A stretch of 64,000 nt of DNA from a virus (IMGVR_UViG_2645727901_000008); one strand, 5' to 3'; positions 2,170-54,259 are shown, numbered from the stretch's first letter. Notes: generated by a model from the letters alone, not told the origin. Numbers and translations: made by a program.

Positions 2170-2211
2170 CAATTGTGTTAGAAAATTCTATTCAATTATC
2201 TAACACAATTG
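2170..2211. promoter_or_regulatory. Bivalent copy of the dispersed 17-bp motif (candidate C1-type operator) just upstream of hrdC
   Basis: Perfect 13-bp inverted repeat CAATTGTGTTAGA (2170-2182) / TCTAACACAATTG (2199-2211) with a 16-bp spacer. On the hrdC strand the spacer contains TAGAAT, a -10-like hexamer. Confidence 0.5.
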
Positions 2212-2221
2212 GATGTGTTTT

Positions 2222-2875
2222 CTATCCCTTCTTGAAATCAAAGTTGCTTGCGATGGCCTGGAAGGTGCCTCCAGCCTTGAAATCAATATTTTCGTCGGCT
2301 GTCACAGTAATGTTTTTGCCATTAACGCTGATGTTATCGGCTGATTTGACGTTAACACTCCCTCCCGCATTCACTACTACATCAGCCGGACCAATGATGT
2401 ATATCTGCCCTGATTCATTCATTCCAATCCTTGAGCCTGCTGCCGTATTCGCTATTTCATATCCACCGCCAGCCGTTCGCACTTCGAGCACATTGTTGCG
2501 GTGAATCACGAAATCTTTTGTCGCCGAAAATTGCGGGCGGGGAGGCGCTCCGTCTACTTCTGGTGGCGTCCAGCCGCTACCATTGCCTGACGCCTCCGGC
2601 GCGACGTTTGGTACTCCTCCAGGCGCATCCTGAGCTGCGCCAACTATCATTGGGCGTCTGGTATCAATTCGACCATTAACATCCAGATAAGGAAACTCTA
2701 CCCATACCAGGTCGCCTTTTACTGTAGGTACAAACGCGTTACCTATGGGTAACAGGTATTCTGCCCAGGGTAGATCGTCATCAGGAACGCCATTCCAGTC
2801 TGGTAAAACACGGACCTGAGCACGCATAAGCCCTGCCGGGTGCACAGTTCCAACAATTTGCGCTCTACGCTTCAT
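2222..2875 (-). CDS. Baseplate central spike / gpV-like protein
   Basis: N-terminal OB-fold pattern typical of P2 gpV / Mu gp45 (GTV..AQVRV..LPWAEYL..VKGDLVWVEF), then a Gly/Val-rich repetitive C-terminus. Last gene of a 4-gene overlapping operon. Confidence 0.6.
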   Translation of the reverse strand: MKRRAQIVGTVHPAGLMRAQVRVLPDWNGVPDDDLPWAEYLLPIGNAFVPTVKGDLVWVEFPYLDVNGRIDTRRPMIVGAAQDAPGGVPNVAPEASGNGSGWTPPEVDGAPPRPQFSATKDFVIHRNNVLEVRTAGGGYEIANTAAGSRIGMNESGQIYIIGPADVVVNAGGSVNVKSADNISVNGKNITVTADENIDFKAGGTFQAIASNFDFKKG

Positions 2876-3852
2876 TTGTTCGGCACTCCTAATATCATTC
2901 GTGTTGTGTAGCCTACGCGGTCTTCAAAGTGCGCAACATTTTTTACTATCAGCTTGCGGGGCATTGATTCATCAATGCGGTTTTCCTGGTCATAGCGGTA
3001 TACGATAATCTCTATTACCATTCCCGGTTTTATATCCGGATTGCCTGCGACTTCTATATCCATTTTGGGGACGAGAGACAGCTGCATATTGCGAAGAGTT
3101 TCCATATCAGAATCGGATATATAACGCACTGGGAGTGAGCTATCGCCATATTCGACGTAGCCATCGGTCATGGAATACCCAACAAAACGATATTGATTCT
3201 TTGCTGTTGTCGCATGTTCCTGTTGGAGTAGGCGCATTTTGGACAAAGTGTATTCTGCTTTAGGGTTATTCCCCTCGTAGGTAAATGATGGCGTTTGCTT
3301 CATCAGATCAGCCAGGGTGTAAAAGTTAAATTCCCCACGGCATACCCAACATAATGCACCTTTGTCTCGCGCTATCTGCGAGAGCATTTTTGACGGTTTG
3401 TCACCGGCATTCAGATGATATGTAACTGCGCGTTTTAGCACGCTGCTGGTAATTTTAAGCTTGCCGGAATATGCCTTGAATATAGCGTCTGGTGTTTTGT
3501 TGGTATGTAAATTTGTGCGCGGGGAGGGGATCTTAAACCTGCGCACGTCTTCACTGACAGCAATAACGGTAACAACATCACCAGCCAGCATTGCAGACGT
3601 AACAAAGAAGTCTGTTTTAAAAGTGCCTGCATTACCGTTTGGATCGCCCATTTCAGCCACCAGCGATGCACCGTATTTGGCTTTCCAGTCATCAATTACG
3701 GTGCCGGTAGCGTCATGAATTTCCAGTTTTAGCAAAGGGGCTTTGAGGCTGGTTTTTTCTACATATACTGCGGTAAAAATCCAGTCTCGTGGCACTTTGT
3801 TATCGTTAATGAGCACTGACTGTAGAAAATATTGTTGTAACTCCTGGGCCAC
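2872..3852 (-). CDS. Baseplate hub-like protein (gpD / Mu gp44 position)
   Basis: 326 aa, start/stop overlap with the spike gene, and in the position immediately upstream of the spike. No motif I can name. Confidence 0.4.
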   Translation of the reverse strand: MAQELQQYFLQSVLINDNKVPRDWIFTAVYVEKTSLKAPLLKLEIHDATGTVIDDWKAKYGASLVAEMGDPNGNAGTFKTDFFVTSAMLAGDVVTVIAVSEDVRRFKIPSPRTNLHTNKTPDAIFKAYSGKLKITSSVLKRAVTYHLNAGDKPSKMLSQIARDKGALCWVCRGEFNFYTLADLMKQTPSFTYEGNNPKAEYTLSKMRLLQQEHATTAKNQYRFVGYSMTDGYVEYGDSSLPVRYISDSDMETLRNMQLSLVPKMDIEVAGNPDIKPGMVIEIIVYRYDQENRIDESMPRKLIVKNVAHFEDRVGYTTRMILGVPNK

Positions 3853-3855
3853 TTA

Positions 3856-4623
3856 TCACCCCATAGATATCGAGGTTTCGGTAATAATACGTTTTGCGTC
3901 CAACTCCCATGCTGTGATCACGTCTGCAATCACACTTATCGGCGCTTGTGTGGCATAAATACGCTCTTCTCCAATTGGTGCCGAAACATCCGTAAATCCG
4001 ACTTCTTTGGCATCCTGTATCGAGCAAATCAGCGGGACCGGGACACGAACAAGGTGAGTGGTTGCTTCAAATTGTGTACCTGTCATCAGGCGAAGCCGTG
4101 CGCCCAGCGAATTACACATCAGACTCATGGTCGCTTTATCAGTTGACATTAACGTAACGTCATACGTCAGAATGGCCTGGGTGTATTCCAGTTCTGCTAA
4201 AGGCATTCCGGTATCCGGTTCGCAAAAACTGGCTACTTTTTTGCGGTCAATCTGCTGATCATCGTTGATATAATTGATATCCATAGTGCGTGAGATATTG
4301 ACCAGGGGGAGAGCATCCCGGTTAATGTTCTGGTTTTCAGGTTTTCTCCCTTGCCCGGCATTTGCGCGACGAACTGCTTTAAGAAACTCGATCGCATTGT
4401 CGAAACGGGCCACATAGACACGCTCTGCTGGTGGACGATTCAGGAATGACGCAAAGCGTTTTTCTTCCGGCGCGGGGGCCACCAGTAAGATATCAGAAAA
4501 GATATTGCTGATTAGCGTAGCAAACGCGTTATCCACGTTTTCAAAGCCCGTGGTCTGGAATTTCCCTGTGCGTGAGGTTTGCCATTCACCTGTTCGCGCC
4601 AGGAGGGTTTTATTTGAAGTCAT
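3856..4623 (-). CDS. Tail/baseplate-associated hypothetical protein
   Basis: 255-aa ORF, translationally coupled within the baseplate operon (4620-4623 overlap). No recognisable motif. Confidence 0.35.
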   Translation of the reverse strand: MTSNKTLLARTGEWQTSRTGKFQTTGFENVDNAFATLISNIFSDILLVAPAPEEKRFASFLNRPPAERVYVARFDNAIEFLKAVRRANAGQGRKPENQNINRDALPLVNISRTMDINYINDDQQIDRKKVASFCEPDTGMPLAELEYTQAILTYDVTLMSTDKATMSLMCNSLGARLRLMTGTQFEATTHLVRVPVPLICSIQDAKEVGFTDVSAPIGEERIYATQAPISVIADVITAWELDAKRIITETSISMG

Positions 4624-5453: not shown

Positions 5454-5481
5454 TGTCTGGAGATTGTGATTTCAATTCATA

Positions 5482-5532: not shown

Positions 5533-5556
5533 ACTTTCAGAGAGAAGGAATCTGTG

Positions 5557-5862: not shown

Positions 5863-6222
5863 ATGAACATTAAACCTATCCGTACAGAACAAGATTATGA
5901 GGCCGCACTGCGTGCGGTCGAACCGATGTTCGATAACGAACCGGAAATGAACACACCGGAAGGCGATTTCTTTGAAGTAATGTGCCTGCTCATTGAAGAG
6001 TACGAGAAAAAGCATTACCCAATTGAGCCACCATCACCTATTGAAGCCATTAAATTCCGTATGGAACAGCAAGGGCTGACCGTGAAGGATCTGGAACCGG
6101 CGATTGGTAAGTCAAATCGAGTTTACGAAGTGCTTAATGGGACACGAAATTTGACGTTACCTATGATTCGTCGTTTACATGCCCAGTTTGGTATTCCACT
6201 GGAAAGTCTGGTTGGTGTTTAA
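5863..6222 (+). CDS. higA: HigA-family antitoxin (XRE-type HTH)
   Basis: 119 aa, starts 3 nt after the higB stop. C-terminal HTH (LTVKDLEPAIGKSNRVYEVLNGTRNLTLPMIRRLHAQFGIP), the typical HigA layout. Confidence 0.85.
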   Translation: MNIKPIRTEQDYEAALRAVEPMFDNEPEMNTPEGDFFEVMCLLIEEYEKKHYPIEPPSPIEAIKFRMEQQGLTVKDLEPAIGKSNRVYEVLNGTRNLTLPMIRRLHAQFGIPLESLVGV

Positions 6223-6227
6223 GTTTG

Positions 6228-6249
6228 GCGGTCTGGAGGACCGCTTTTT
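6228..6249 (+). terminator. Intrinsic terminator after higA
   Basis: GCGGTC-TGGAG-GACCGC followed by TTTTT. Confidence 0.6.
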
Positions 6250-6272
6250 ATCTAAAATAAAAATTAGAAGGT

Positions 6273-7022
6273 TTGATAGCTTGTATGGGCAAAAATTCAT
6301 CAACAGAAAACACATCTACAATTGACTCAATCAAGGGCACAATGGATGAAGCCATAAAAGATAAATTATTTAATAAATTATTTGCATATGTGGTGGTTTC
6401 ATTTTTTGTCGTTAATTGGCAAGAAATACTAATTTTGTTTAAATCTAAATATGATATATACACAACACTGTCTATAGTATGGGTAGGGGATAAATATCAA
6501 ATCCCTTATTTTGGAACCTTCATTGTATCTCCGTTTTTAGCTCACTTTGTGATGCCGTTTATATATGGCACTATTGCGTCCATAGTGATGCCTTATATTA
6601 CTATGCGTATATCAAAACTCACTGGTAGAAATTATGCGCAAATAAGATACATTGACCATGAATTTGACTCAGAAGAGAAAGCAAGAGTAAAGGCGTTGCT
6701 GAGAAACCTAAAGAAAAAAGAGGAAGAGCTTTTAAAATTAGAGGAACAAATAGAAGGTCAACAAAAAATACTGAATACAATCGAAGAAAAGAAGAGAGAG
6801 ATTGAGAGTGCCAGAGTGGCTCTGTATCACGGTATAAAAGTAATTGTTGATATATATAAAGCAAAAGATAAAAGGATTTCCACCAAAGAAGATTTTGCCG
6901 ATTTATTAAAAGCAATTGAAGAAAGTGATTTTTATAAAGACACTGGGTTGTGGGGTATTAATAAATTAATAGATGACGTGGAGACAATATATGAGTCTCA
7001 ATCGACATCAAAGGACAAGTAA
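6273..7022 (+). CDS. Membrane protein with a C-terminal coiled coil (accessory gene; possible Abi/exclusion factor)
   Basis: AT-rich ORF with hydrophobic segments (LFAYVVVSFFVVNWQEILILF; FGTFIVSPFLAHFVMPFIYGTIASIVMPYITM), then a K/E-rich heptad-like region. Starts at TTG 6273 (GAAGG SD) or ATG 6285. Confidence 0.45.
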   Translation: MIACMGKNSSTENTSTIDSIKGTMDEAIKDKLFNKLFAYVVVSFFVVNWQEILILFKSKYDIYTTLSIVWVGDKYQIPYFGTFIVSPFLAHFVMPFIYGTIASIVMPYITMRISKLTGRNYAQIRYIDHEFDSEEKARVKALLRNLKKKEEELLKLEEQIEGQQKILNTIEEKKREIESARVALYHGIKVIVDIYKAKDKRISTKEDFADLLKAIEESDFYKDTGLWGINKLIDDVETIYESQSTSKDK

Positions 7023-7025
7023 TAT

Positions 7026-7047
7026 AAAAGGCGGGATAACCGCCTTT
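7026..7047. terminator. Bidirectional hairpin terminator
   Basis: AAAA-GGCGG-GATAA-CCGCC-TTT between convergent genes. Confidence 0.5.
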
Positions 7048-7055
7048 GTTGTAAA

Positions 7056-8252
7056 TTAAGAACCTTTCTTCACATACTCCATGAACATTTTTTCAGCTTG
7101 TGCAGGTGGTGTTCCTGCCATGACCAGCGCATCAATGAACGCCTGCTTCTTCAGTGCGAACTGATCGGCCAGGCGTTGCTGAAGCTCCTTGTTTTTCTGT
7201 TTCTCACGTTGCAACGCCGCTTCTTTTGCTGCCGCCCGTTTTTTCTGTGCGTCTGACAACTTTCTGGCCTTGGTCAGTTGGTCACGTAGCTTGTCAATCT
7301 TGCCGTTGTCCTTTGCCAGTTTTGTGCTTAAAGCGGCCTGGCGCTTCTGATAGAGCCTCCATTCGCGCTTGGCAGCGTCAACGTTTGTTTTACTGTTGCG
7401 ATTGCGATTAAACTCCCTCTCGTCTTCTTTTGAGAAGTGTTTGGTTGTACGGCGGCGATCGTCACCAAATGCAATTTGCGTTGCGGCCTTTTGTAACGCA
7501 CGAGCAATACTCATTTGCCAACTAGCGGACTGTAACCGCGTCATTGAGTGGATCACGTGTTTACAGGCGACGCCTTGTAGCTTAGGGTTACGAACTTTTG
7601 GATAGGCGTATTCTTTTGGCGGGGCCAGGGCAAAGTTACCCGCAGTAGCGATGTAACGATACCAGTATTGATGACGACCACAGTCACAATCGAAAGACAC
7701 CCGCCCGGCGCACAGTGATTTAGTGATTTTCAGAGCTGATTTATCGTCTTCTGCGATGTCATCGACCATCTGATCCCATTCTTCAAAGCGTATCCGGACG
7801 ATATGGTGCTGGTGGACGGATATATCCGATGCTTCTACGCGGATATGAATCACGTTGTGGCGAAGAGATACGGGTGTAGCTCTTTTGATACCAGATCCGT
7901 CATCCACGGCGTTATTTGCACGCTTAATATCGATTGCCTGGCTGGATGCCACCAGCTGGGCGTATGTGATGCCAGCCGTCTTGCTGTCATATTTTTCGCG
8001 TGTTTTACTCCGTAGCTTTTCGAAACCTTTCAGGTCGTCTCGCGTGAAGAACGTGCCGCCTTTTTTCTTCCCTAACTTGAGAATATCTTCGGCGGATTTG
8101 TTCCTCAGTCTACCTGGCGTCAGCGTCCGGTGAGCTTGTCGGCGCTTACGGGTTTGTTCTTTCCTGATAAGGTCGAATAAACGCGTGAAGTCCTTAGAGG
8201 ACAGGCCGTCAGTGATATAGCGCCCGTCCTGGTTTTTCAGGAAATCAGGCAT
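7056..8252 (-). CDS. SWIM zinc-finger protein with a basic coiled-coil C-terminus
   Basis: CxC..CxH pattern: FDCDCGRHQYWYRY..GVACKHVIHS. The C-terminal ~100 aa are K/R/A/Q-rich. Confidence 0.5.
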   Translation of the reverse strand: MPDFLKNQDGRYITDGLSSKDFTRLFDLIRKEQTRKRRQAHRTLTPGRLRNKSAEDILKLGKKKGGTFFTRDDLKGFEKLRSKTREKYDSKTAGITYAQLVASSQAIDIKRANNAVDDGSGIKRATPVSLRHNVIHIRVEASDISVHQHHIVRIRFEEWDQMVDDIAEDDKSALKITKSLCAGRVSFDCDCGRHQYWYRYIATAGNFALAPPKEYAYPKVRNPKLQGVACKHVIHSMTRLQSASWQMSIARALQKAATQIAFGDDRRRTTKHFSKEDEREFNRNRNSKTNVDAAKREWRLYQKRQAALSTKLAKDNGKIDKLRDQLTKARKLSDAQKKRAAAKEAALQREKQKNKELQQRLADQFALKKQAFIDALVMAGTPPAQAEKMFMEYVKKGS

Positions 8253-9608: not shown

Positions 9609-9824
9609 GCTTTGGCGTTATGACTCCCTACCGCGCTTCGGCTGAAAGTTAATCGTCAAAAGAACCTTCAACGGGAGCCGTTAGCGCGATGGATTATGTG
9701 CAGTTTGTGATTTCCAAAATAGTGTCAACCACTTTTTGTGGATTTTATTTTTTGACCGAAATTTGGCCTAAATCATGTTGATGTAGTTAATTGTTTTTAT
9801 AACATAAAACTTCATTTTGTTTAC

Positions 9825-14756: not shown

Positions 14757-14812
14757 ATTGGCAGCCTCCTTTGACTAAGTTAAGGAGCTACCGCGTGAGG
14801 TTCCAATCTCAA

Positions 14813-14892
14813 TGGCGGTAGCACTGACTGGGTTGGAACTACCGGCGTCAAAGGGAACCGGCCTGCCTTTCGGCAGCCCAGCCAGCACTACC
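14813..14892 (-). ncRNA. c4: c4-like antisense immunity RNA, module 1 (~77-80 nt)
   Basis: - 16-bp terminal helix GGUAGUGCUGGCUGGG / CCCAGUCAGUGCUACC, then GCCA.
- Internal CUGCC-GAAA-GGCAG hairpin.
- Loop CCUUUGAC and single-stranded GUUCCAA each have complements both upstream and downstream; the downstream copy overlaps the icd SD.
- Length fits the 77-nt P1 c4. Confidence 0.7.
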
Positions 14893-14941
14893 ATTGATCT
14901 CTGAGCTAAACGCTACGTATGGCTGTGCGATGGCATGACAC

Positions 14942-14963
14942 AAAAAAAGACGCTTTCGGCGTC
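14942..14963 (-). terminator. Hairpin plus U7 between the a1/b1 boxes and c4 (module 1)
   Basis: Minus strand: GACGC-CGAAA-GCGTC followed by TTTTTTT. Confidence 0.55.
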
Positions 14964-15068
14964 TGTGTCGCCTTTGACATTATCCGGGGTTCCAATCCCG
15001 GCACCCGTTTTTCTAAGGTGCCGTAGAAATATACCCCACGATAATGCCAGGGCGCAACAGTCAGTATT

Positions 15069-15557: not shown

Positions 15558-15574
15558 TGTTAGAAAACTAATTT
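15558..15574 (+). promoter_or_regulatory. 17-bp motif copy (candidate C1-type operator)
   Basis: TGTTAGAAAACTAATTT at the ref 3' end, upstream (on the minus strand) of the immI-1 leader. Minus-strand TTGAAT-17-TACATT lies just downstream. Confidence 0.45.
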
Positions 15575-16194: not shown

Positions 16195-16224
16195 TGTTAG
16201 ATATTCAAAATTGATTTTCTAACA
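16195..16224. promoter_or_regulatory. Bivalent motif (candidate operator) overlapping a plus-strand sigma70-like promoter, between ref and the early operon
   Basis: TGTTAGA-N16-TCTAACA. TTGATT (16211-16216), 16 nt, TAATAT (16233-16238). Confidence 0.55.
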
Positions 16225-16263
16225 CAAAACATTAATATCATTCCTGATAACTGTTTGGAGGAC

Positions 16264-19530: not shown

Positions 19531-19560
19531 CGTTAGAACATTGATTTTAGTTTTCTAACA
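19531..19560. promoter_or_regulatory. Bivalent motif (candidate operator) upstream of the DUF968 gene
   Basis: CGTTAGA-N16-TCTAACA. TTGATT is embedded in the spacer, as at 16195. Confidence 0.5.
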
Positions 19561-19602: not shown

Positions 19603-20598
19603 ATGAGTGCAATAATCACCCCATATGTCGTAAATGAAACTGGTGTGGCTGTCTTTCCGGTAGACAAGCCCACCAGCAACTACATCGGCGCAGGTCGCCG
19701 TTTCATTATCTCACCACTTCCGCGAGAACAGGCTGAAAACACTCCAGATGGCGTAGTGGATCTGAATTATTCGCTGGTTGCCAACCAGTCGCTGAAACCA
19801 TTTTTTCAAAGCGAGCGCGTATTTAACGCGTTAGGCGGTGAAGATTCGCTTGTTCATTGGGTAAGTTCCAATATCCACGATTGCCAGGCGCACGATAAGC
19901 GCGATTGCAGCCACCAGCTAACCACTCATTTCTATAACGGCTCTGCCGTTCGCCTGTGCTGGAAGCATGATGCGGAATACATGATGAAGGGGTACAGCAA
20001 GCTGGACGACCAGTTATCCCTGAATCGCGCCAACTGGGTTATGAACTGGGCTGCGAGCGAGTTAAAACTACCGCCAGAACGCGATCTGAGCATGGTTGAA
20101 CTCACTTTTTGGGCCATTCGCCGGAATCTGAAAGATGAGCTGCCAGATGAAGCCGGGCGCATTGCATTTTGTCAGCCAAAAACTGAAATCCCTACCGGTA
20201 CGCTGAAAGAATCAGATATCACCTGGGAGCACAGTACCCGCGAGCTGGTGGACATAACCGCAGAGCAGATCGTCAACCTGTCTGTAGATGAGGATTCCGG
20301 CCTGCTTTATATGCGCCGACCAAAAGCGGTCCTCGGTAAAAGCCCAGCTTATCTCCGGTTTGTGGTTTCTCGTCCGTGCATCGGATGCGGTGGCAAAGTT
20401 AACCACCCGTTCATGTACCGCGCCCGCTCGTTAAACGAACACGACCGCTGGGCTGTTCCTCTTTGTGATGACTGCGCCAGAAGCGCAGAACACGATGTCC
20501 GGGCATGGGAAAAAGCACATGGCATACGCCTTTATGTAGCCGCTAACCAGCTTTTCGACTTCGCCATCGAGCGCGGAGTGATCACGTTCAATAACTGA
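19603..20598 (+). CDS. DUF968-type protein (Cys-rich C-terminus)
   Basis: C-terminal RPCIGCGG..HDRWAVPLCDDCARSAEHD pattern, which I associate with DUF968 prophage proteins. Confidence 0.45.
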   Translation: MSAIITPYVVNETGVAVFPVDKPTSNYIGAGRRFIISPLPREQAENTPDGVVDLNYSLVANQSLKPFFQSERVFNALGGEDSLVHWVSSNIHDCQAHDKRDCSHQLTTHFYNGSAVRLCWKHDAEYMMKGYSKLDDQLSLNRANWVMNWAASELKLPPERDLSMVELTFWAIRRNLKDELPDEAGRIAFCQPKTEIPTGTLKESDITWEHSTRELVDITAEQIVNLSVDEDSGLLYMRRPKAVLGKSPAYLRFVVSRPCIGCGGKVNHPFMYRARSLNEHDRWAVPLCDDCARSAEHDVRAWEKAHGIRLYVAANQLFDFAIERGVITFNN

Positions 20599-30079: not shown

Positions 30080-30420
30080 CGACGCCCCCTTGCAGGATAT
30101 CGACCTGCATCAGTATCCGGTGCGATAAAGCCGGTAGTGGGGCGAGTGAAAGCGAGATTAATCTTCTCGACCATAGTGCGATAATTTTCCTGATAGTGGG
30201 CCAGGAGTTTTTCGGCGGCAATGATGGTTACTTTCCGGACGTAGCTTTCTGCTTCCTCCAGATTTCGCCAGTTTTTTTCGAGGGTAAACACAGGGACGGC
30301 CTCAAGCCCGGTCATGATGCCGAATACAACGACAGCATGACTGTTCTTAACACCAGCAGCGAAGGTTACGGTGTAACCATCCACCTTAAAGCGTCTTGAT
30401 TCCGTGATTTGACTCTGCAA
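30076..30420 (-). CDS. Hypothetical protein downstream of the recombinase gene
   Basis: 114 aa, TTG start with a GGAGGG SD. Confidence 0.35.
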   Translation of the reverse strand: MQSQITESRRFKVDGYTVTFAAGVKNSHAVVVFGIMTGLEAVPVFTLEKNWRNLEEAESYVRKVTIIAAEKLLAHYQENYRTMVEKINLAFTRPTTGFIAPDTDAGRYPARGRR

Positions 30421-30478
30421 AGCACCCTCCGAAATAGGCGAGGGTACTTTACAGCAAAGATAACAATCTAAAAAGATG

Positions 30479-30495
30479 TGTTAGAAATTTAATTT
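30479..30495 (+). promoter_or_regulatory. 17-bp motif copy (candidate operator)
   Basis: TGTTAGAAATTTAATTT overlapping the recombinase stop, about 60 nt upstream of the 30420 start. Confidence 0.45.
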
Positions 30496-31522: not shown

Positions 31523-31673
31523 GAAACTATTTAACCTCTATATACAGATGACGCTACGCAAAAATATAAAAATGACAGGGTAGCTATAAGTTAATTTTCA
31601 AAATTCAAGCCTTTGATTCGAGGCACGTATTTTTAGTGATGTCAACACTGATCATCTACCCATGATTATAGTC

Positions 31674-31705
31674 TAACTTTAAATAATGCCAATTATCTAA
31701 AGTTA
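31674..31705. other. rox-like recombination target (14-bp arms, 4-bp spacer), one arm mismatch
   Basis: TAACTTTAAATAAT-GCCA-ATTATCTAAAGTTA, 152 bp upstream of dre. The rox I recall is TAACTTTAAATAATGCCAATTATTTAAAGTTA. Confidence 0.8.
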
Positions 31706-31878
31706 GAAACTTAGGAATTTTTTTCCTTTCCCCGTAGATGGGCAATGCATTGCTGGCGTGGGCTTTAAGTTATGCCTGGCAGTTTTTAAGCAGAATTTTC
31801 TAAATTGGATGACAAAAAAATGCATCTTGATCCTTTACTCACCCTGTTATTCGGCATAGATTTGTCATAGTAATTTTA

Positions 31879-31895
31879 TGTTAGAAAACTAAATC
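31879..31895 (+). promoter_or_regulatory. 17-bp motif copy 12 nt upstream of the 345-aa gene; a degenerate copy lies at 31789-31805
   Basis: TGTTAGAAAACTAAATC. Upstream, on the minus strand, ATTTAGAAAATTCTGCT. Confidence 0.45.
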
Positions 31896-31906
31896 GAGTA
31901 GGAATA

Positions 31907-32944
31907 ATGAGTAAGAAGTCGATCGAGAAAGAGTACAAACGGTTCCTGCAAACCGCTGAACGGTGGAAAGAGCTGGTGGTCGCAAACTCTGTTTTCCATG
32001 ATACCAGTTATGCCGGCGAGGAATTCCGCCACGTTGCACTAACACATGATCAGAATGTACTAGAAGAAGCTGAAAAGTGCCTCACAGAATGGAAAGCCTT
32101 TGTTGACTTGTGCCGTAACGCTGACGGCAAAGCGTCCAACATTGTTGAGTCTGTATATTCTCCGATCCCATTCATTATTGAGGACACAAATCAAAGCACG
32201 CATATTGTTGTGCAAAGCGCGACCACCACCCGCTCATTTACGCGCGAAAATCTGCTCAAAAAATATGATGCAATTATAAAGAAAAGCCTGAAAAACAAGA
32301 TATTTTCGCAGATTGTTGGTGCACTTGAAGAAGAGCGCCGTTTTTTCGCATCAGAACCTGAAGGGGAAGTTTACCGGGCGCGCAAAGATGGATACACAGA
32401 TGTAGTGCTTACAACAAACATTGAAGGCAGCAATGCTCTGTCACGATTCAGGGTAGGCGCACACGGAGCCTTAGTGTTCGCAAAACTTCCGAACACCACA
32501 GTGCCCGTTGTTAATAATGTCGGCGAACGTCGCAGCATTACTATTTATTCTGGGGTTGAGTCGATACCTTGCGGCCTGCTTGGTGACTTTAGCCTCTATC
32601 GCGTTCGCGATCTGGAGAAACACCAACCAAGCTATGTTGCGAAGTCATATATCTTGCGAAACATCGACATCCGCAATGAGAGCTTAAAGAACAAATCAGC
32701 CAAAATGCTTGAGGAAGCCGATCCGGCTATTCGCCATATCATTGAGCGTAAAATACAGACAGCACGCGAAGCGATGGCGAGACTGAATAAAATGGATCTG
32801 GAGTTGTTAGACGTAATGATGACATCCGGAGATGACCTGACAGGCATAAAACTGACAGACGCGCGGAAAAGATACGGTAAAACCATAGAAGAACGTTACG
32901 GGTTCACTTTCTCCCAAACACAGCACGCCGCTAAACTCTGGTAA
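31907..32944 (+). CDS. Hypothetical 345-aa protein at the P1 c1 position (candidate immunity repressor by synteny only)
   Basis: Transcribed from the rox side towards pacB and convergent with it, as c1 is in P1. Motif copies lie upstream. I could not see similarity to P1 C1. Confidence 0.3.
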   Translation: MSKKSIEKEYKRFLQTAERWKELVVANSVFHDTSYAGEEFRHVALTHDQNVLEEAEKCLTEWKAFVDLCRNADGKASNIVESVYSPIPFIIEDTNQSTHIVVQSATTTRSFTRENLLKKYDAIIKKSLKNKIFSQIVGALEEERRFFASEPEGEVYRARKDGYTDVVLTTNIEGSNALSRFRVGAHGALVFAKLPNTTVPVVNNVGERRSITIYSGVESIPCGLLGDFSLYRVRDLEKHQPSYVAKSYILRNIDIRNESLKNKSAKMLEEADPAIRHIIERKIQTAREAMARLNKMDLELLDVMMTSGDDLTGIKLTDARKRYGKTIEERYGFTFSQTQHAAKLW

Positions 32945-32969
32945 TCACAAGCCCCGCATTGCCGGGGCT

Positions 32970-34478
32970 TTATATATCCAGATCTGGCATTTCCACATCT
33001 GCAAGAACCTGATCGCGGAAGGTAGCCATTTCAGCGCCGATATCTTCATTAGCAGGAACATAGTCCACCAGCATTGTAAAGCAGTAGGTATCCCATCGGT
33101 CAGGTGATTTGATGTTCAGCTTTTGCCGCATGTGCTCCTTGCGCATCATCGCCATCTTCCCTTCTTCATTAAGTAAAAAGGGGATTTTTGACGCTTGCTC
33201 TGCCGTTTTAGGGTCACTGTCTATTCGCATACGACCTGACTTTATGGCATCACGAGCCATAATATTTGCGTAGGCACGTTGGTTAACAAAACGCTCCTTG
33301 TCTTTGTTCGAAAACATGGGTTTCCCCCACCGAATACGTACCGGATTAGCCCCACGGCGCACCAGCTGCGCACAGGTATCTGAACCAAAACCGTCTGCGT
33401 CAACCGCGATTGTAATATTCGGGTATTTATCCGGCGTGCATTCGTTGTATATAAAGTCAGCAAAAGCCAGCGGGTCCATAGTCCCTGGCATTTCCATTAT
33501 CTTAAAGTTAACAACGCGCCGCTTATTCCTGTGACCTGACACCTTGCAGATGTTAAGGACCGACTTGTCTCGCCCGTTCCCAACGTCAGCTGTCGCTACC
33601 CACCCCCAATTTTTCTCCAACAACACCTTGCGCCGCGCAGCGCGATCGCATTCATCACGACCAAGCAAATAGCCGTTAATCTCCCGAGGGAACTGACCAA
33701 GCACCTTAACCATATACTCAATAGAATCGCGCCCGCCATATTCCAGGAGTTTCTGCCTGATGAATTGTGGTGTGACGAACGGTGATTCTTCTGAGTTAAG
33801 AACAATTGCTGTCCAGATCCCTTTCGGGTTGTCTGGGGTTTTAGCTTGAGAATGGTGCGAATCGTAGAAATAACCACTTGGCCTTGTTGGCTGGGATAGC
33901 ATCAACATTCGGTTATCTTCTTCAGTAAGAGCACCGGTCATTACGCCGATCGCCTTATCAGATATACCAGATGCTTCATCCAGAATTAGAAGCAAATGTG
34001 CCGCGTGTTCCCCCGCCAGCGCTTCTTCGTTGCCGAGTCGATAACCTTTGCAGAGAACTTCCCAAATCCCCTTACGGGAGCGCTCATAAAACATGGTGTC
34101 AGAGAGGACAAAATAGGTCTGCAACCACCCATGACGCTTAACTGCATTCGCCCAATACTGTTTAACGTATTTGAATACGCCTGTTTTTACCTGGCCTATC
34201 TTGTTAGCAACAATGATGACACGGGCATCGGGGAACAGGATCATAAAAATCAACAGCAACATCGCGGTAAGGGACGACTTCCCCGTTCCGTGTCCGGACG
34301 TGACGGTAGTCCTACTCCCCGTTTCCTGCACTGACTGAATGATCTGCTGCTGCTGGTGGGAGGGGAACATCCCAAAAATATCGACAACAGCCTGGGTAAA
34401 GTTGTAGCGGTATTTGATTACCATATCGCGCCAGCGTGGATCGCTGGTGACGCATTTAATCTTGCGCCCGCCAGCCAT
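32970..34478 (-). CDS. pacB: Terminase large subunit PacB
   Basis: Walker A TSGHGTGKSS, Walker B LLLILDEASG, 502 aa, ATGA-coupled to pacA. Confidence 0.85.
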   Translation of the reverse strand: MAGGRKIKCVTSDPRWRDMVIKYRYNFTQAVVDIFGMFPSHQQQQIIQSVQETGSRTTVTSGHGTGKSSLTAMLLLIFMILFPDARVIIVANKIGQVKTGVFKYVKQYWANAVKRHGWLQTYFVLSDTMFYERSRKGIWEVLCKGYRLGNEEALAGEHAAHLLLILDEASGISDKAIGVMTGALTEEDNRMLMLSQPTRPSGYFYDSHHSQAKTPDNPKGIWTAIVLNSEESPFVTPQFIRQKLLEYGGRDSIEYMVKVLGQFPREINGYLLGRDECDRAARRKVLLEKNWGWVATADVGNGRDKSVLNICKVSGHRNKRRVVNFKIMEMPGTMDPLAFADFIYNECTPDKYPNITIAVDADGFGSDTCAQLVRRGANPVRIRWGKPMFSNKDKERFVNQRAYANIMARDAIKSGRMRIDSDPKTAEQASKIPFLLNEEGKMAMMRKEHMRQKLNIKSPDRWDTYCFTMLVDYVPANEDIGAEMATFRDQVLADVEMPDLDI

Positions 34479-40853: not shown

Positions 40854-42074
40854 TTATTTCCCATAAAGATCTTCTACGCCCCCATTCTTCTTGTCCCATT
40901 CGTTAGCCCACACCCGGCAGGCATCAATAATTTCTTGACGACGGTCGCCCTGCATAAAGGGGATGCTTTCATGAAAACTACTTGGGATACAGGCCACGCT
41001 GAATACGGTATCAAACGCAGTCTGTTTGATAGCTTCCAACGTCTCTGGGCGCATTTTCAATTCATCGATCGGCGCATCCTTAGAGTCCATAATCCGGCGA
41101 TGCAGGCGCGGGAAATCAGTCTCCAGGTACGCCATAATTTTATCTGCCAGGCATTCGTCTATATCGGTATTCCAGTCCGTTTCGAAGCCGGGCAGGCGAT
41201 AGTAAAGCGGCGTTCCCCATACTGATGGGATCACATCCATCGTCAGCAGGCGGTTGGTTCTAATTTGTTGATGGTAATTAGCCGTCAACAGAGCTTCACC
41301 ACGCTGACCAGTCTCCGCAACCAGACCATGCGGGTACTCATGGATATAGGCAATAGCATCCACCCCGTCATACATGAGCGGGAATGTCTCTGGCCTTTGT
41401 CCCATACCACAAGCGCGGTTCAGATCATGACCAAGCTGTGAGCACTCTCGTTTCAGCGTTTCAATAATGTTCTGCGCTGTTGCTAACTTTTTACGCAGTG
41501 TGACGCCTTCGCCTTGATACTTAATGCATTGCTGATTCAGCTCTGTTAAACGCTCTTTTAGTTCCCGACGCTCTCTTTTCAGCGCACGGTTATCCTTCTC
41601 CGCAACATCCAGTCGTTTTGACAGACTGGCTGGATAGTCTTTTTTGTAACGACTCAAATCGGCTTCTGCGGATTTGCGCAGTGTGTTTGCCTGTTCAAGA
41701 CGCGCTTCCAGATTACCGATCTCACTACGCATATTCGCGGCAAATTGATTAACAGCATTGCCAAGACTTTCAACTGTCGCTGATACGCCTGTGACTTGTG
41801 AAAAACGGATCAAGCCATCATTAACGGCTTGTTGATATCCCTCAAACTGATCCACCAGCTTGTTGTAATCAACCGTCCCTTCCTCAAGTAGCTGGTTGAT
41901 CTCCGCGACCAGGTTATCAGTAGTGGCAATGACGCTCTCATGTAACCGTCTGGACAGGTCATCCCCCGGATTCCGCTTTTGAATAAGGGCGATCTGTGTC
42001 CGCAGCGTTTCAATCGCGGCTGAGATGATTTCCAGATTAGAAGTATCAGTTTGTTGACTCATTGCAGTTCCCAT
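40854..42074 (-). CDS. Hypothetical protein, N-terminal coiled coil plus a C-terminal globular domain
   Basis: Start taken at MGTAMSQQ (42074) or MSQQ (42062), because the longer track ORF runs through a 17-bp motif copy at 42086-42102. Confidence 0.4.
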   Translation of the reverse strand: MGTAMSQQTDTSNLEIISAAIETLRTQIALIQKRNPGDDLSRRLHESVIATTDNLVAEINQLLEEGTVDYNKLVDQFEGYQQAVNDGLIRFSQVTGVSATVESLGNAVNQFAANMRSEIGNLEARLEQANTLRKSAEADLSRYKKDYPASLSKRLDVAEKDNRALKRERRELKERLTELNQQCIKYQGEGVTLRKKLATAQNIIETLKRECSQLGHDLNRACGMGQRPETFPLMYDGVDAIAYIHEYPHGLVAETGQRGEALLTANYHQQIRTNRLLTMDVIPSVWGTPLYYRLPGFETDWNTDIDECLADKIMAYLETDFPRLHRRIMDSKDAPIDELKMRPETLEAIKQTAFDTVFSVACIPSSFHESIPFMQGDRRQEIIDACRVWANEWDKKNGGVEDLYGK

Positions 42075-42085: not shown

Positions 42086-42102
42086 AGATTAGTTTTCTAA
42101 CA
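42086..42102 (-). promoter_or_regulatory. 17-bp motif copy upstream of the coiled-coil gene
   Basis: Minus strand TGTTAGAAAACTAATCT. Confidence 0.45.
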
Positions 42103-42688: not shown

Positions 42689-43135
42689 TTAATCAAGACA
42701 AACATATTCCGTGATAGCTTTTATGGCTTCATCGGCACTGCGCGCCTCAAAGCAGTAATAGCCTGCTTCCGTGAGGCGAGTCATCCAGACGAGCTGTTCG
42801 GGAGTCAGACGGTTTCTCCCGTGCTTCATCTCAATGCGCATTCCGTGATACCCACCACGAGCAAGGTCAATAGAAAGGTCCGGATAGCCCTTCTTCTGAC
42901 CTTCTGCCACCATCTTAATGGCTGTCCTTTTGCCTCTCAGGCCGCCGTTCGGTGTTGAGTGTGTGTGCTCATACACGTATCGCATGTTGCGATACAGCCA
43001 ATCCAGAACGCGAACCTGTTCGTAATGTTCGTAATTCCGTTTTAATAAGTCAGGATTTCTTTCTAACTCTCTCAGTGCAGCAGCGTGCGGGGATATTTCA
43101 GAATACGCACTATGATGCCTGCGTCTTCGCATCAA
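42689..43135 (-). CDS. VRR-NUC domain nuclease
   Basis: EQVRVLDWL..GYPDLSIDLARGGYHGMRIEMKHG (PD-(D/E)xK, VRR-NUC layout). Confidence 0.6.
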   Translation of the reverse strand: MMRRRRHHSAYSEISPHAAALRELERNPDLLKRNYEHYEQVRVLDWLYRNMRYVYEHTHSTPNGGLRGKRTAIKMVAEGQKKGYPDLSIDLARGGYHGMRIEMKHGRNRLTPEQLVWMTRLTEAGYYCFEARSADEAIKAITEYVCLD

Positions 43136-43145
43136 ATTTCTAACA
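43129..43145 (-). promoter_or_regulatory. 17-bp motif copy overlapping the VRR-NUC start codon
   Basis: Minus strand TGTTAGAAATTTGATGC. Minus-strand TTGATA-16-TATTAT promoter about 40 nt upstream. Confidence 0.45.
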
Positions 43146-43320: not shown

Positions 43321-43581
43321 TTAATGGTTTATTTTATCAGGTTCGTTAATTTCCGTAACCGCCTTGTCGATAGCAATCATCCATCCTTCATAGGATAAAT
43401 CATCAACAAGTCCCACCAGCTTATCGTCAGTGTGCGGAAAATAAATCCATCCCCATTTCGAAGGGTTTCCTATATGCCGCAGGGTAAATACCCGCTTATA
43501 ACGGTGGTATTCAAGGGCGTATCCCTTCCCTTGTGAGTACGCTTTTAAGTCGTCGATCGTAAACCTACGATTCTTCCGCAT
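43321..43581 (-). CDS. Hypothetical protein
   Basis: 86-aa ORF, 2 nt after the upstream stop. Confidence 0.3.
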   Translation of the reverse strand: MRKNRRFTIDDLKAYSQGKGYALEYHRYKRVFTLRHIGNPSKWGWIYFPHTDDKLVGLVDDLSYEGWMIAIDKAVTEINEPDKINH

Positions 43582-50894: not shown

Positions 50895-51045
50895 AGGATT
50901 TCCCCCTCTAAACCGTAAAAAATTCCGCTATGCGGTACGGTTGAGAGGGTATGGAGAATGTTATTTTCAGGGGGACGATACTACCGTCAAAATCACATAC
51001 TCCCCATAGTTTGCCTACTTATTAACCCATGACCGGGAGAAAAAT

Positions 51046-51555: not shown

Positions 51556-51563
51556 ATCACGCT

Positions 51564-52468: not shown

Positions 52469-52692
52469 CAGTGAGCCTCCGCAATGCCGGGATTGGTAAT
52501 ATTGCGATACCAGGGATTGGTGTTTGGTTGTGGGGAAGTGGAGAAACGACCAGTGAGAACGCCATACTGATCAGGGATCAGAGAACGGGCTTCTTTTTCA
52601 GTTGCGGCAATTGCGAAGTGATCGCAGTGTTTTTGCAGGGAGTGAAAACGCCAGATGAATTCTGGACGTGAGCAAGGATTGGCATTAACCAT
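52468..52692 (-). CDS. icd: Icd-like small protein, module 2
   Basis: 74 aa, EFIWRF motif, ends AEAH like its paralogue (VEAH). TGATG coupling to ant. Confidence 0.55.
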   Translation of the reverse strand: MVNANPCSRPEFIWRFHSLQKHCDHFAIAATEKEARSLIPDQYGVLTGRFSTSPQPNTNPWYRNITNPGIAEAH

Positions 52693-52740
52693 AGTTACGG
52701 CCTCACTAACAGGTTTAACAACCTGCTACCCGCTGCTAAA

Positions 52741-52819
52741 CAGGTGGCAGGACGTGACGGGGTTAGCAGACTGGCGTTAGTGAAACCAGCAGGCCGAAGC
52801 CTCCCCATCACGCCCCACC
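52741..52819 (-). ncRNA. c4: c4-like antisense immunity RNA, module 2 (~77 nt)
   Basis: Same architecture as module 1: terminal helix GGUGG..GCGUGAUGGGG / CCCCGUCACGU..CCACC, a GGC-UUCG-GCC hairpin, loop CACUAAC and single-stranded CUGCUAA. Each has complements upstream (52888, 52902) and downstream (52704 over the SD, 52733). Confidence 0.65.
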
Positions 52820-52851
52820 ATAATTTGGGCGTAACGCGGTTTTACGGACAC

Positions 52852-52880
52852 AAAAATACCGCAATATCGGATATCTGCGG
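52852..52880 (-). terminator. Hairpin plus U-run between the a1/b1 boxes and c4 (module 2)
   Basis: Minus strand: CCGCA..TGCGG followed by TATTTTTG. Positional equivalent of 14942-14963. Confidence 0.4.
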
Positions 52881-53022
52881 TTGTCCGCACTAACATTCAG
52901 GCTGCTAAACCCGGTCGCAGAATTTGCTACGACGACATGAATATAAGCCTGAAAACATGGAAGATCAACTAAAAATTTCAGCAATAGATGACTTCAGTCG
53001 ATGATGCAGATCATACATTCCG

Positions 53023-53052
53023 ATTTAGAAACGGCAAATTAATTTTCTAACA
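53023..53052. promoter_or_regulatory. Bivalent motif (candidate operator) upstream of immI-like module 2
   Basis: ATTTAGA-N16-TCTAACA. The minus-strand half is the exact consensus TGTTAGAAAATTAATTT. This is the position of P1 Op51. Confidence 0.5.
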
Positions 53053-53106
53053 CAAAATGTCGAGCGAGCATTTTCCGATCATTGGGATGTTTTGTAGACG
53101 CACAGG

Positions 53107-54069
53107 TCACCCCCTAAAGCCAGCCGGGATTGACCAATCCTCACGGTCAAATTCAGACCGATAGCCACGCTGTTTCATCAGGTCAAAGGCTTCACCAATG
53201 GTTGCACACCCCTGGGAGCCAGAATAATCCATTGAGAAATCCAGGGCACTGGATTGTTTAGGCTTATTCACTGCGGTAGCGGCACTACGTATCCATGCAA
53301 ATTTTTTTGCCAGCTTTTCAGCGGTACGATACAGAGCCTGCCGTTTTGTGTGCCCCTCGTCTGAACGACGCTTTGCAGCTCTCGCTTTTGCCGCCGCCAG
53401 GCAGTGGTTGGTCTGTTCTTCCCTGATTACTGTTTTTTTATCCAGCACCCCGTTATCCGTTTGAGAACTATCTGCTGGTGAAGCCTTTGGCTGAACCGCG
53501 CATGATCTTTCTCTTCTTTTGGCTATAGAGTGACTCTTATTTTCTATTGGCTGTTCATTTTGAACATGGGGGGACTTGTTCAATTTGAACAGGGGGTTCC
53601 CAGTTTCAAAAAAATAACGAACCTTTGAAATCAACTGCTTAACCAGTTTTGTGGCGTTGGCAAATTTGATGCCCTGCTTACCCCCTATCTCCATTGCTAC
53701 ATGAATGAAGTGGAGAAATTGTGTCGTAAACCGATATACGTTACACACCTGGGCATTGTTATTCGCTACCTGATGTTGCTTAACAAGCATTCCGCACTTC
53801 GTCGCTTCAGCAAATGCCCGGCGTACAGTAGAAATACTGCGTCCTGTAATCTCGGACATATCAGCATATGAGCGACGGATCATGTATTCATCGGTAGACC
53901 CTGCCAGGTTGGCGAACTCGGCAATAATGGCGCTATGTGAAGGGGAAAGAAGACCGCTATGACGAGCAAAAAAACTCAACTGATGACCTTTGATTTTTTT
54001 GTGGTATTCAGTGTTGTTTTTATACTCAGAAGTGTTGAAAGTTACTGAAACTGAATTTAAAATATTCAT
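53107..54069 (-). CDS. Putative winged-helix DNA-binding protein (possibly RepL-like replication/regulatory protein)
   Basis: wHTH-like segment MIRRSYADMSEITGRSISTVRRAFAEATKCGMLV, then a basic low-complexity centre. Confidence 0.3.
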   Translation of the reverse strand: MNILNSVSVTFNTSEYKNNTEYHKKIKGHQLSFFARHSGLLSPSHSAIIAEFANLAGSTDEYMIRRSYADMSEITGRSISTVRRAFAEATKCGMLVKQHQVANNNAQVCNVYRFTTQFLHFIHVAMEIGGKQGIKFANATKLVKQLISKVRYFFETGNPLFKLNKSPHVQNEQPIENKSHSIAKRRERSCAVQPKASPADSSQTDNGVLDKKTVIREEQTNHCLAAAKARAAKRRSDEGHTKRQALYRTAEKLAKKFAWIRSAATAVNKPKQSSALDFSMDYSGSQGCATIGEAFDLMKQRGYRSEFDREDWSIPAGFRG

Positions 54070-54133
54070 CAGATAGTTCCGTGCAAAAATCTATCTACCG
54101 TATAAATCTATGCCAGTGGATTTATACACCAAA

Positions 54134-54153
54134 AAGCCGCTTCTCAGCGGCTT
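54134..54153. terminator. Bidirectional terminator after the protease-candidate gene
   Basis: AAGCCGC-TTCTCA-GCGGCTT flanked by an A-run and T-runs. Confidence 0.55.
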
Positions 54154-54242
54154 TTGCTTTTTTTGGCAGTCGCTACCGGAGCAGTGACCGCGATCCTACT
54201 CAATCACATCGGACAGGATCAACAGTGTATATAAATACACTA

Positions 54243-54259
54243 TGTTAGAAATTTAATTT
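54243..54259 (+). promoter_or_regulatory. 17-bp motif copy
   Basis: TGTTAGAAATTTAATTT, preceded by the palindrome AGTGTATATAAATACACT. Confidence 0.45.

Follow-up and report, generated by a model that had tools for sequence, protein, structure and literature searches.

A dispersed asymmetric 17-bp motif as the candidate operator set of a distant C1 homologue in a D6-like phage-plasmid

A short asymmetric motif recurs between the genes of a P1-like virus, and the question that it raises is which protein reads it. The window analyzed here, a 64,000-nt stretch of viral DNA (IMGVR_UViG_2645727901_000008), is on sequence grounds a D6-like phage-plasmid of the P1 family and shares about 94% identity with phage D6. 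The original prediction had described a dispersed 17-bp motif and read it as the operators of a C1-type repressor in a heteroimmune relative of P1. Its consensus, TGTTAGAAAAYTAATTT, is matched 10 times in the 64,000-nt window at ≤2 mismatches, against 0.05 matches expected, while shuffled windows (n = 100) never held more than one such match, and a copy was found at every position where one had been predicted. Additionally, the exact palindrome TGTTAGA-N16-TCTAACA is present at 2176-2205 and 16195-16224, against zero expected occurrences. The position-weight-matrix scan that had been proposed was run on the window, with a matrix trained on the 10 best copies and a half-site cut-off of ≥10 bits, and it returned 18 half-sites at 14 loci, 13 of which are credible and span 2-54 kb. 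The fourteenth, at 9788-9804 (TGTTATAAAAACAATTA, 11 bits), was left uncounted because it is no better conserved than its flanks. D6 carries the same sites as the window, plus one beyond the window's range.

The 17-bp site has no internal dyad symmetry and consists of a conserved head, (T)GTTAGAAA(A), followed by a looser and variable AT-rich tail, YTAATTT. All the predicted single copies are present, those at 40679 and 43129 with intact heads and with 3-4 mismatches each, all in the tail. Five loci are paired, with the heads pointing outward and the tails overlapping over 30 bp; two of them are exact and one near-exact, so that the five bivalent loci listed in the original prediction exist, although its title counted four. 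As predicted, the copies are intergenic or lie at gene boundaries, since all 18 half-sites fall in non-coding DNA or on gene ends, which make up 10% of the window (the coding fraction of 90% being defined by a greedy ORF set). The window scan found no copy in the lydA/dar operon, again as predicted, nor in the lysis, head and tail operons.

A candidate reader is encoded at 31907-32944 (plus strand, 345 aa), where D6 records name the gene c1 and where the original prediction had placed the candidate repressor. This predicted cognate repressor, assigned by homology to P1 C1, shares 20% identity with it over 239 aa in BLASTP (E-value = 8e-8) and aligns with it in hhalign over 230 columns (residues 7-242) with a probability of 97.6% (E-value = 4.6e-12), and its homologues carry the PF27008 Phage_P7_repressor_C1 domain in precomputed annotation. 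Judged by sequence, the gene at the c1 position thus encodes a genuine C1 homologue, though one very distant from that of P1. The protein is about 60 aa longer than P1 C1, and its C-terminus is extended by an additional helical segment of about 100 aa. Concerning its fold, a structure predicted from a 10-sequence alignment had Tus as its only PDB match, with a TM-score of about 0.4. Tus is the replication terminus-binding protein of E. coli, which also acts at an asymmetric site, Ter, but its role is fork arrest, whereas the role proposed for C1 is transcriptional repression at many sites, and the two share no sequence similarity: hhalign of C1 against the Pfam Ter family (PF05472) gave a probability of 0.3% (2.6% with a 100-sequence profile), phmmer gave no matches, and a Pfam scan returned no Ter match.

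Two copies lie upstream of c1 itself. The proximal candidate operator at 31879-31895 (plus strand, 24.2 bits) leaves 11 nt to the c1 start codon and follows a conserved promoter, TTTACT-17-TAGATT, at a distance of 16 nt. When the c1 upstream regions of six lineages were aligned, TGTTAGAAAA was the sole invariant run of 10 columns, even where the identity of C1 falls to 45-52%, and the geometry was kept, with the motif 16-21 nt after the -10 hexamer. A degenerate distal copy had been predicted at 31789, and the upstream alignment placed it at 31789-31805 (minus strand, ATTTAGAAAATTCTGCT); its counterpart in three lineages (L111, L112, and L113) has a perfect TGTTAGAAAA head (alignment columns 128-137). 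It could be argued that the head, TGTTAGAAA, is not an operator but an extended -10 element (TGn-TAGAAA) of early promoters read by the host RNA polymerase, given that TG-N-TAGAAA resembles TGnTATAAT and that six single sites are oriented as the downstream gene and precede it by 10-100 nt. We consider this very unlikely: TAGAAA lacks the essential final T of a -10 hexamer, the single sites at 15558, 30479, and 54243 point the wrong way, and at c1 the site follows a separately conserved -35/-10 by 16-21 nt, with only those 11 nt left to the start codon. Moreover, neither the conserved tail nor the palindromic pairs would have a role in an extended -10 promoter. The overlap with sigma70-like promoters noted in the original prediction holds for its examples, TTGATT-16-TAATAT at 16211-16238 and TAGAAT inside the hrdC site, but not for the class, since sigma-70-like matches are not enriched (11 against 16.4 expected at 30-44 kb) and a clear overlapping promoter is visible at some motif sites only.

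Most of the remaining sites, read as candidate operators, lie before genes whose P1 counterparts have C1 operators. The palindromic pair TGTTAGAAAATTCTATTCAATTATCTAACA at 2176-2205 (16.2 + 11.1 bits), within a perfect inverted repeat that reaches 2170-2211 as predicted, separates gene 5 from a minus-strand operon of hrdC, cytosine-methylase and adenine-methylase genes and is also present in D6; in P1, Odmt precedes uhr-hrdC-dmt. The second exact pair (16195-16224; 15.9 + 25.9 bits) lies where ref, on the minus strand, and the plus-strand orf88...ppp operon diverge; P1 has Oref, and the motif identity of the pair is 0.959, compared with 0.852 for its flanks (17 variants). At 15558-15574 (plus strand) a single site of perfect consensus (0 mismatches, 28.8 bits; identity 0.987 against 0.929 in flanks, 14 variants) overlaps the ref stop codon, upstream of a second immI-like module on the minus strand, which comprises small ORFs, an isrK-like RNA (14943-15021), a C4 RNA (14811-14898), icd and an antirepressor gene, both RNAs being identified by Rfam. 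The other immI module has its candidate operator at 53023-53052, made of a perfect half (53036-53052, minus strand, 0 mismatches, 28.7 bits) and a degenerate one. The C4 target sites a1b1 (52894-52946; Rfam c4-a1b1) lie 77 nt downstream of it and are followed by C4 RNA (52740-52825; Rfam), icd and the antirepressor gene. The tail of this candidate operator overlaps a -35-like TTGCCG; likewise, Oc4 of P1 abuts the -35 of P2c4.

Two sites are tied to the regulators of lytic growth. The pair at 36310-36339, with a strong half, TATTAGAAAATTAATAT, and a degenerate one (24.0 + 10.0 bits), separates orf5 from lpa (minus strand), whose start is about 80 bp away. P1 has Olpa, and a TTTTCTAA(C/T)A core is found upstream of lpa in 5/6 lineages. 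The single site at 54243-54259 (plus strand, 27.5 bits; identity 0.948 against 0.856 in flanks) separates pro from repL, the minus-strand lytic replication gene, which it precedes by about 175 bp; P1 has OrepL (Op53) before kilA-repL. Around the tRNA cluster (37762-39613, minus strand; Rfam and ARAGORN), the single site at 40679-40695 (minus strand, 16.4 bits, weak tail) lies in the non-coding leader upstream of the cluster, preceded by a late-promoter-like box at 40700-40711; its head, TTTTCTAAC, is invariant in 13 variants while tail and flanks vary. Its neighbor at 40835-40851 (minus strand, 27.6 bits; head invariant in 14 variants) directly follows the pmgS stop, 15 bp upstream of a promoter-like TTGATT-17-TAGAAT (40819-40791) that points toward the leader and the cluster, and its P1 analogue is Obanab, before the tRNA/ban operon. 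The site at 42086-42102 (minus strand, 26.4 bits; identity 0.916 against 0.751 in flanks, 14 variants), lies between the terminator following pmgR (42171-42146) and the pmgS start; P1 has OpmgRa and OpmgRb. At the pmgM start, the site at 43129-43145 (minus strand, 14.7 bits, weak tail) is found 26 bp downstream of a promoter-like TTGATA-16-TATTAT (43198-43171; 10/12 match); TTTCTAACA is invariant there in 18 variants at a flank identity of 0.69, and O26 and Oppp flank pmgL-pmgM in P1. Finally, the pair CGTTAGA...TCTAACA at 19531-19560 (12.8 + 25.2 bits), kept in D6 and across 10 variants, lies 43 bp 5' of a pdcB-like/HNH gene (19603-20598, plus strand), and a single site at 30479-30495 (plus strand, 27.5 bits) separates the dre recombinase stop from orf117 and precedes the minus-strand orf117-dut operon by 59 bp. 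Copies are equivalently placed in L111 and L112, 58-61 bp before the orf117 homologue, and L113 has one between the recombinase gene and its orf117 homologue.

This placement also bears on the alternative that the original prediction had set against its own reading, namely that the motif serves this lineage as its Lpa-dependent late-promoter element. The Lpa of the window is only 31% identical to that of P1, and P1-type late boxes (AACAAGTGACTT-N4-TANAAT) are not enriched (3 against 1.6 expected); therefore, some different late box must exist in the window. The Lpa-dependent late promoters of P1 (a -22 box plus a -10) are also short, conserved, repeated intergenic elements. They have, however, a strict orientation and stand before operons for morphogenesis and lysis, whereas the TGTTAGA motif is unoriented and avoids such operons, being found instead before c1, repL, the C4/icd/antirepressor modules and lpa itself. 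Six sites are oriented with the gene downstream and three against it, in addition to the palindromic pairs, and a promoter would not tolerate such a mixture. A separate motif, AAATMACAWWCT, occurs 11 times against 3.0 expected, 8-104 nt upstream of gp7, mat, darB, the orf16 hydrolase gene, prt, ddrB, and lydA, always in gene orientation and with a TANNNT-like hexamer 3-5 nt downstream. It is a candidate for the late box of the window and would fill the late-promoter role; since it is separate, oriented and located before the late operons, the late-promoter explanation fails and we regard it as extremely improbable.

The operator reading gains from the comparison with P1 and P7, in which the placement of the sites was set against the annotated P1 record, the D6 annotation, and the Rfam and ARAGORN results. 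The sites of the window precede c1, both C4/icd/antirepressor modules, repL, lpa, ref, the hrdC-methylase operon, the tRNA operon and pmgS/pmgM, so the claim that they stand before the genes of a P1-type C1 regulon, c1 included, agrees with the annotated record. In P1 and P7, too, about 15-20 asymmetric 17-bp operators with a conserved head and an AT-rich tail are dispersed over a phage-plasmid of roughly 90 kb before c1, c4-icd-ant, repL, lpa, ref, the dmt operon, the tRNA/ban operon and pmg genes, some are paired with heads out and tails overlapping, and the repressors belong to one protein family. The paired span is 30 bp in the window and 28 bp in Obanab and Oc1ab of P1, and the heads are unrelated, TGTTAGAAAA in the window against ATTGCTCTAAT in P1. 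The P1 consensus given in the original prediction, ATTGCTCTAATAAATTT, agrees with the record, having 17 matches in P1 at ≤3 mismatches, at annotated operators. At the same threshold P1 has no copy of the window motif and the window has none of the P1 operator; the two never co-occur in P1, D6 or the window. The window motif is thus, by its sequence, of a different specificity class from the P1/P7 immunity operator, in line with the proposed difference in immunity. Unlike P1, the window has no coi gene upstream of c1, has two C4/icd/antirepressor modules, each with a motif site, and has an additional site after the recombinase gene. An Lxc co-repressor was not detected, the 86-aa ORF at the lxc position being without similarity, and none is reported in PMC6799933.

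Conservation among relatives is concentrated in the head. Among distinct D6-like variants (16 half-sites), conservation reaches 98-100% at motif positions 2-9, compared with 82-93% for the tail and about 85% for the flanks, and the head is, from these alignments, under strong purifying selection. TGTTAGAAAA is found again before lpa and after the recombinase gene in distant lineages. The exact 17-mer occurs in 104 IMG/VR loci, 68 of which are D6-like and nearly all with several head copies, while the remaining 36 are unrelated and nearly all single-copy. In L114, whose C1 is 30% identical, the 4 kb of sequence examined contain no TGTTAGA. The head stays the same in lineages whose C1 is 45% identical, and a joint change of repressor and motif was not seen within the D6 clade; contrasts in both are provided by P1 and L114 only.

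Such constancy of the head while C1 diverges to 45% identity across lineages might suggest that another factor binds the sites, either a second regulator of the D6 lineage or a host protein such as ArcA. The half-site of ArcA is TGTTA, with which the motif head begins, and ArcA sites are direct repeats. C1 is assigned as the probable binding protein by analogy and position only. Binding by another factor nevertheless appears unlikely: P1, which has the same hosts, carries no motif copy but has C1 operators at homologous positions, and the invariant G6-A9 and the single, non-tandem TGTTA misfit the direct repeat of ArcA. In addition, a copy follows the c1 promoter at a constant distance in every lineage, the hallmark of a repressor that controls its own synthesis, and the heads-out pairing replicates the geometry of P1 C1.

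We conclude that the D6-type C1 repressor, whose gene lies at 31907-32944, most probably has this motif as its operator. The reading of these sites as operators for a C1 homologue whose specificity differs from that of P1 is supported computationally, in that every sequence-level prediction held, and such a set, although expected, has apparently remained unannotated. One C1 molecule would bind one asymmetric 17-bp site, a stoichiometry taken from P1, and would read the conserved head and the looser tail. In the plasmid prophage, C1 would sit on about 13 loci of the window, or about 15 in a whole D6 genome, that adjoin, cover or lie just downstream of early promoters. Presumably acting as a repressor at the candidate sites, it would shut off lpa (the late activator), repL (lytic replication) and both C4/icd/antirepressor modules, together with ref, the hrdC-methylase operon, the tRNA leader and several pmg genes, and it would limit its own synthesis from the site just downstream of the c1 promoter. 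Upon loss of C1, lpa would be released and Lpa would turn on the late operons via a different promoter box. If this is true, a master repressor silences this prophage with a DNA specificity other than that of P1.

The 17-bp element TGTTAGAAAAYTAATTT, which consists of a conserved head and an AT-rich tail, is matched 10 times in the window at up to two mismatches, against 0.05 expected. The 7-mer TGTTAGA occurs 16 times; 14 of these copies extend to TGTTAGA(A/T)A, all in non-coding DNA, and the remaining two (12680 and 32805) are intragenic and do not continue with (A/T)A. A weight matrix was built on the ten best copies and, with 10 bits as the half-site cut-off, its scan led to 18 half-sites at 14 loci of the window. 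At a threshold of 8 bits, 24 matches were found, compared with 3–10 in shuffled sequence. All 14 loci are non-coding or straddle gene ends, although 90% of the window is covered by a greedy set of ORFs. The dispersed motif described in the original prediction is confirmed in its copies, statistics and coordinates, every site position being correct. The five paired sites listed there also stand, but not the count of four in its title, and the palindrome TGTTAGA-N16-TCTAACA is exact at only two of them (2176-2205 and 16195-16224). The sites at 40679 and 43129 have intact heads and weak tails. A fourteenth candidate at 9788-9804 on the minus strand (TGTTATAAAAACAATTA, 11 bits), between mat and a simB-like gene, was rejected, as its conservation across D6-like variants is no better than that of its flanks; P1 has Omat where this doubtful candidate sits.

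Bacteriophage D6 is a relative of P1 with a plasmid prophage lifestyle. Escherichia phage D6 (MF356679) is about 94% identical to the 12-kb slice of the window at 30000-42000, and the two have the gene order c1, pacB, pacA, lpa, tRNAs and pmgS in common. More than 100 plasmid records of E. coli, Shigella and Salmonella span at least 80% of the same 12-kb query. The sites of the window recur at matching positions in D6, which has one additional site between gene 23 and orf52, beyond the range that the window covers. In P1, no copy of the motif was found at up to three mismatches and, reciprocally, the P1 operator ATTGCTCTAATAAATTT has no copy in the window at up to three mismatches; P1 itself has 17 copies of ATTGCTCTAATAAATTT, at positions annotated as C1 operators. 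The exact 17-mer is present in 104 stretches of IMG/VR viral contigs, 68 of which are D6-like (80–98% identical to the window), nearly all with at least two copies of the head. Of the remaining 36, which are unrelated, all except three contain a single copy. Neither of the two D6 GenBank records annotates operators; both annotate a rox site, and MF356679 also cix recombination sites. In the open literature, we found no paper presenting the motif in a phage context, or a D6-like phage together with an operator and a repressor, although the operators may already have been described in print, for example in the D6 genome paper. Concerning other repeated sequences, the Chi site GCTGGTGG occurs 44 times in the whole window (1.7 expected); a high Chi density was previously noted for P1.

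The placement of the sites was compared with the fully annotated P1 record, the D6 annotation and the results of Rfam and ARAGORN. The site at 31879, with a degenerate one at 31789, precedes c1, like Oc1a-e of P1. The site at 53023-53052 precedes the immI module (the C4 targets a1b1, C4 RNA, icd and the antirepressor) and corresponds to Oc4, while those at 54243 and 36310-36339 precede repL and lpa, like OrepL and Olpa. Similarly, the site at 16195-16224 precedes ref and the divergent orf88...ppp operon (Oref), and that at 2176-2205 precedes the hrdC-methylase operon (Odmt). Two sites at 40679 and 40835 precede the leader of the tRNA cluster (Obanab), and those at 42086 and 43129 precede pmgS and pmgM (OpmgRa/b, O26 and Oppp). 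The site at 15558, for which P1 has no equivalent, precedes a second C4/icd/antirepressor module that is absent from P1. Another two sites are without a counterpart in P1: 19531-19560, which precedes a pdcB-like/HNH gene, and 30479, which precedes the orf117-dut operon. A fork trap at repL/oriL was considered and rejected: both flanking operators point their heads at repL/oriL, but in P1 OrepL and Orlf share the plus strand, an asymmetric arrangement.

The window has two C4 antisense-RNA modules (14811-15021 and 52740-52946), compared with one in P1; one has c4-a1b1 targets, and an isrK-like RNA lies ahead of the other. Upstream of both modules is a TGTTAGA site, and both are followed by icd and an antirepressor gene. 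The tRNA genes at 37762-39613 are all on the minus strand according to both ARAGORN and Rfam. The D6 GenBank record places three tRNAs on the plus strand, where ARAGORN and Rfam give minus (D6 6084-7850), and omits the tRNA-Met at D6 6084-6159. The window encodes tRNAs for Met, Ser, Thr, Tyr and Arg, and D6 for Met, Ser, Thr and Asn. The stretch of about 1.2 kb that separates the tRNA cluster from pmgS (39614-40850) is devoid of annotated genes in D6; a promoter-like site (40819-40791) and a terminator-like hairpin (40097-40080) delimit it. This region may represent a non-coding leader comparable to the dicF-like region in the P1 ban operon; Rfam matches in the 39.6-40.9 kb leader were at chance level only.

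The architecture of the sites is also that of P1 operators, in which a conserved head, ATTGCTCTAAT, is joined to a variable AT-rich tail; two of them are bivalent, with heads outward and tails overlapping over 28 bp. Window sites have the head TGTTAGAAAA and the tail YTAATTT, and their pairs are arranged heads-out over 30 bp. The likeness of the tails, pointed out in the original prediction, is borne out by AATAAATTT and AAYTAATTT, and the tail is the least constrained part of the operator in both phages. For a footprint of conservation, all D6-like loci were projected onto the window and each distinct variant was counted once. Across 16 half-sites, positions 2-9 (GTTAGAAA) are 98–100% conserved, the tail 82–93% and the flanks about 85%. 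At the pmgM, pmgS and 40679 sites the head is invariant, with flanks down to 30–70%. This pattern of substitutions indicates that selection acts on the head.

More distant relatives were aligned upstream of c1, namely four contigs (L111, L112, L113 and L115) with a C1 45–52% identical to that of the window, together with the window and D6. Column identity averages 53%, and ten consecutive invariant columns occur only at TGTTAGAAAA. It is located 16–21 nt 3' of a conserved promoter-like TTTACT-17-TA(G/A)ATT and 11–25 nt before the start codon. About 60–70 bp upstream there is a second, inverted copy, whose head is perfect in L111-L113; the window and D6 have this copy in degenerate form. Further copies stand before lpa and after the recombinase gene of the distant lineages. 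The tails vary by lineage, the sequence in L112 being TGTTAGAAAAAYNAAT. In the 4 kb of sequence of L114, a contig whose C1 is 30% identical, TGTTAGA was not found. An inverted pair, CGTTAGA ... TCTAAGACG, was observed at 1238-1650 of this 4-kb contig, upstream of its 273-aa C1 homologue, and may represent a related head belonging to a third class of specificity.

The gene at 31907-32944, predicted to encode the cognate repressor, is named c1 in both D6 records. Its 345-aa product is 20% identical to the 283-aa P1 C1 (E-value = 8e-8), and a profile of ten D6-type homologues matched P1 C1 over residues 7-242 (hhalign probability 97.6%). Precomputed annotation assigns the C1 homologues to PF27008 (Phage_P7_repressor_C1). 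Among 1.84 billion representatives, this small family accounts for 107 clusters (50% identity), about 15 of them of the long D6 type, which has an extra C-terminal region of about 100 aa with predicted long helices. The P1 lxc product is an 82-aa co-repressor of C1. An 86-aa ORF of the window (43321-43581, minus strand) occupies the lxc position after darB and ulx, but was rejected as an Lxc analogue since it has no detectable similarity to P1 Lxc; D6-type C1 instead carries the helical C-terminal extra of about 100 aa.

If the TGTTAGA motif were the Lpa-dependent late promoter, it would be expected before late genes. The sites are of mixed orientation and are placed before lpa and c1 themselves, and the late-operon genes are instead preceded by a distinct, oriented motif, so this explanation fails. 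The aligned late promoters of P1 follow AACAAGTGACTT-N4-TANAAT, a pattern with no enrichment in the window (3 copies, 1.6 expected). However, AAATMACAWWCT, which differs from the P1 box, occurs 11 times against 3.0 expected. Seven copies (5461-5472, 9702-9713, 50955-50966, 50990-51001, 57006-57017, 59512-59523 and 63278-63289) lie 8–104 nt 5' of gp7, mat, darB, the orf16 hydrolase gene, prt, ddrB and lydA, each pointing the same way as its gene and followed 3–5 nt downstream by a TANNNT-like hexamer. Weaker copies are at 40700-40711 and 30458-30469. We consider AAATMACAWWCT a candidate D6-type Lpa-dependent late promoter.

Where a plausible promoter is visible, the c4 site abuts the −35 (the tail of this immI operator overlaps a −35-like hexamer, and P1 Oc4 likewise abuts the −35 of P2c4), the 40835 and lpa sites are just upstream of the −35, and the c1 and pmgM sites are shortly downstream of the start. 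A general rule of promoter overlap was rejected, as a consensus scan gave no excess of sigma-70-like matches, and promoter assignment is weak at several sites. That the head is itself an extended −10 element is a weaker explanation of the motif, as is binding of the sites by a host factor. Six independent lines of sequence evidence support the reading of the motif as C1 operators, pointing to the operators of a C1-family repressor whose specificity is other than that of P1. We infer C1 binding, stoichiometry and direction of control; by analogy with P1, one C1 molecule would occupy each asymmetric site. Since the sites abut, precede or follow plausible promoters closely, bound C1 would prevent polymerase from binding or stop it during early elongation.

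An AlphaFold2 model of C1 (pLDDT 85, pTM 0.57, ten-sequence alignment) resembles nothing of note apart from Tus, which accounts for all four Foldseek matches at E-values up to 1e-3 (E-value = 2e-7 to 5e-6, over about 304 columns with a TM-score of about 0.4). Tus is the replication-terminus protein of E. coli and binds an asymmetric site as a monomer, as has been reported for P1 C1. No sequence link between C1 and Tus was found, the model had no match among BFVD structures, and no paper in the open literature connects the two. It is possible, if on the doubtful side, that D6-type and P1-type C1 repressors share the Tus fold and DNA-binding mode, a monomer clamping an asymmetric site of about 20 bp; the modelled resemblance is a lead and not a result. 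If true, it would explain a long-known oddity, a monomeric repressor acting on non-palindromic operators, and would link the immunity proteins of phage-plasmids to the origin of Tus, which is an orphan fold of enterobacteria. As a weaker corollary, C1-operator complexes could be orientation-dependent roadblocks.

This prediction is the only part that might surprise a P1 specialist, to whom the operator set itself would be unsurprising, although useful for annotating a common phage-plasmid family. The Dre/rox pair is a tool already derived from D6, and the operators and their repressor may offer an orthogonal pair for P1-based tools. The operator list would serve as a regulatory map of D6-like phage-plasmids, marking promoters expected to be under the master repressor and separating early from late genes, and would provide a sequence basis for D6-type elements being self-immune, yet not immune to P1. 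It also suggests that a dispersed regulon can retain its positions while its recognition sequence is replaced.
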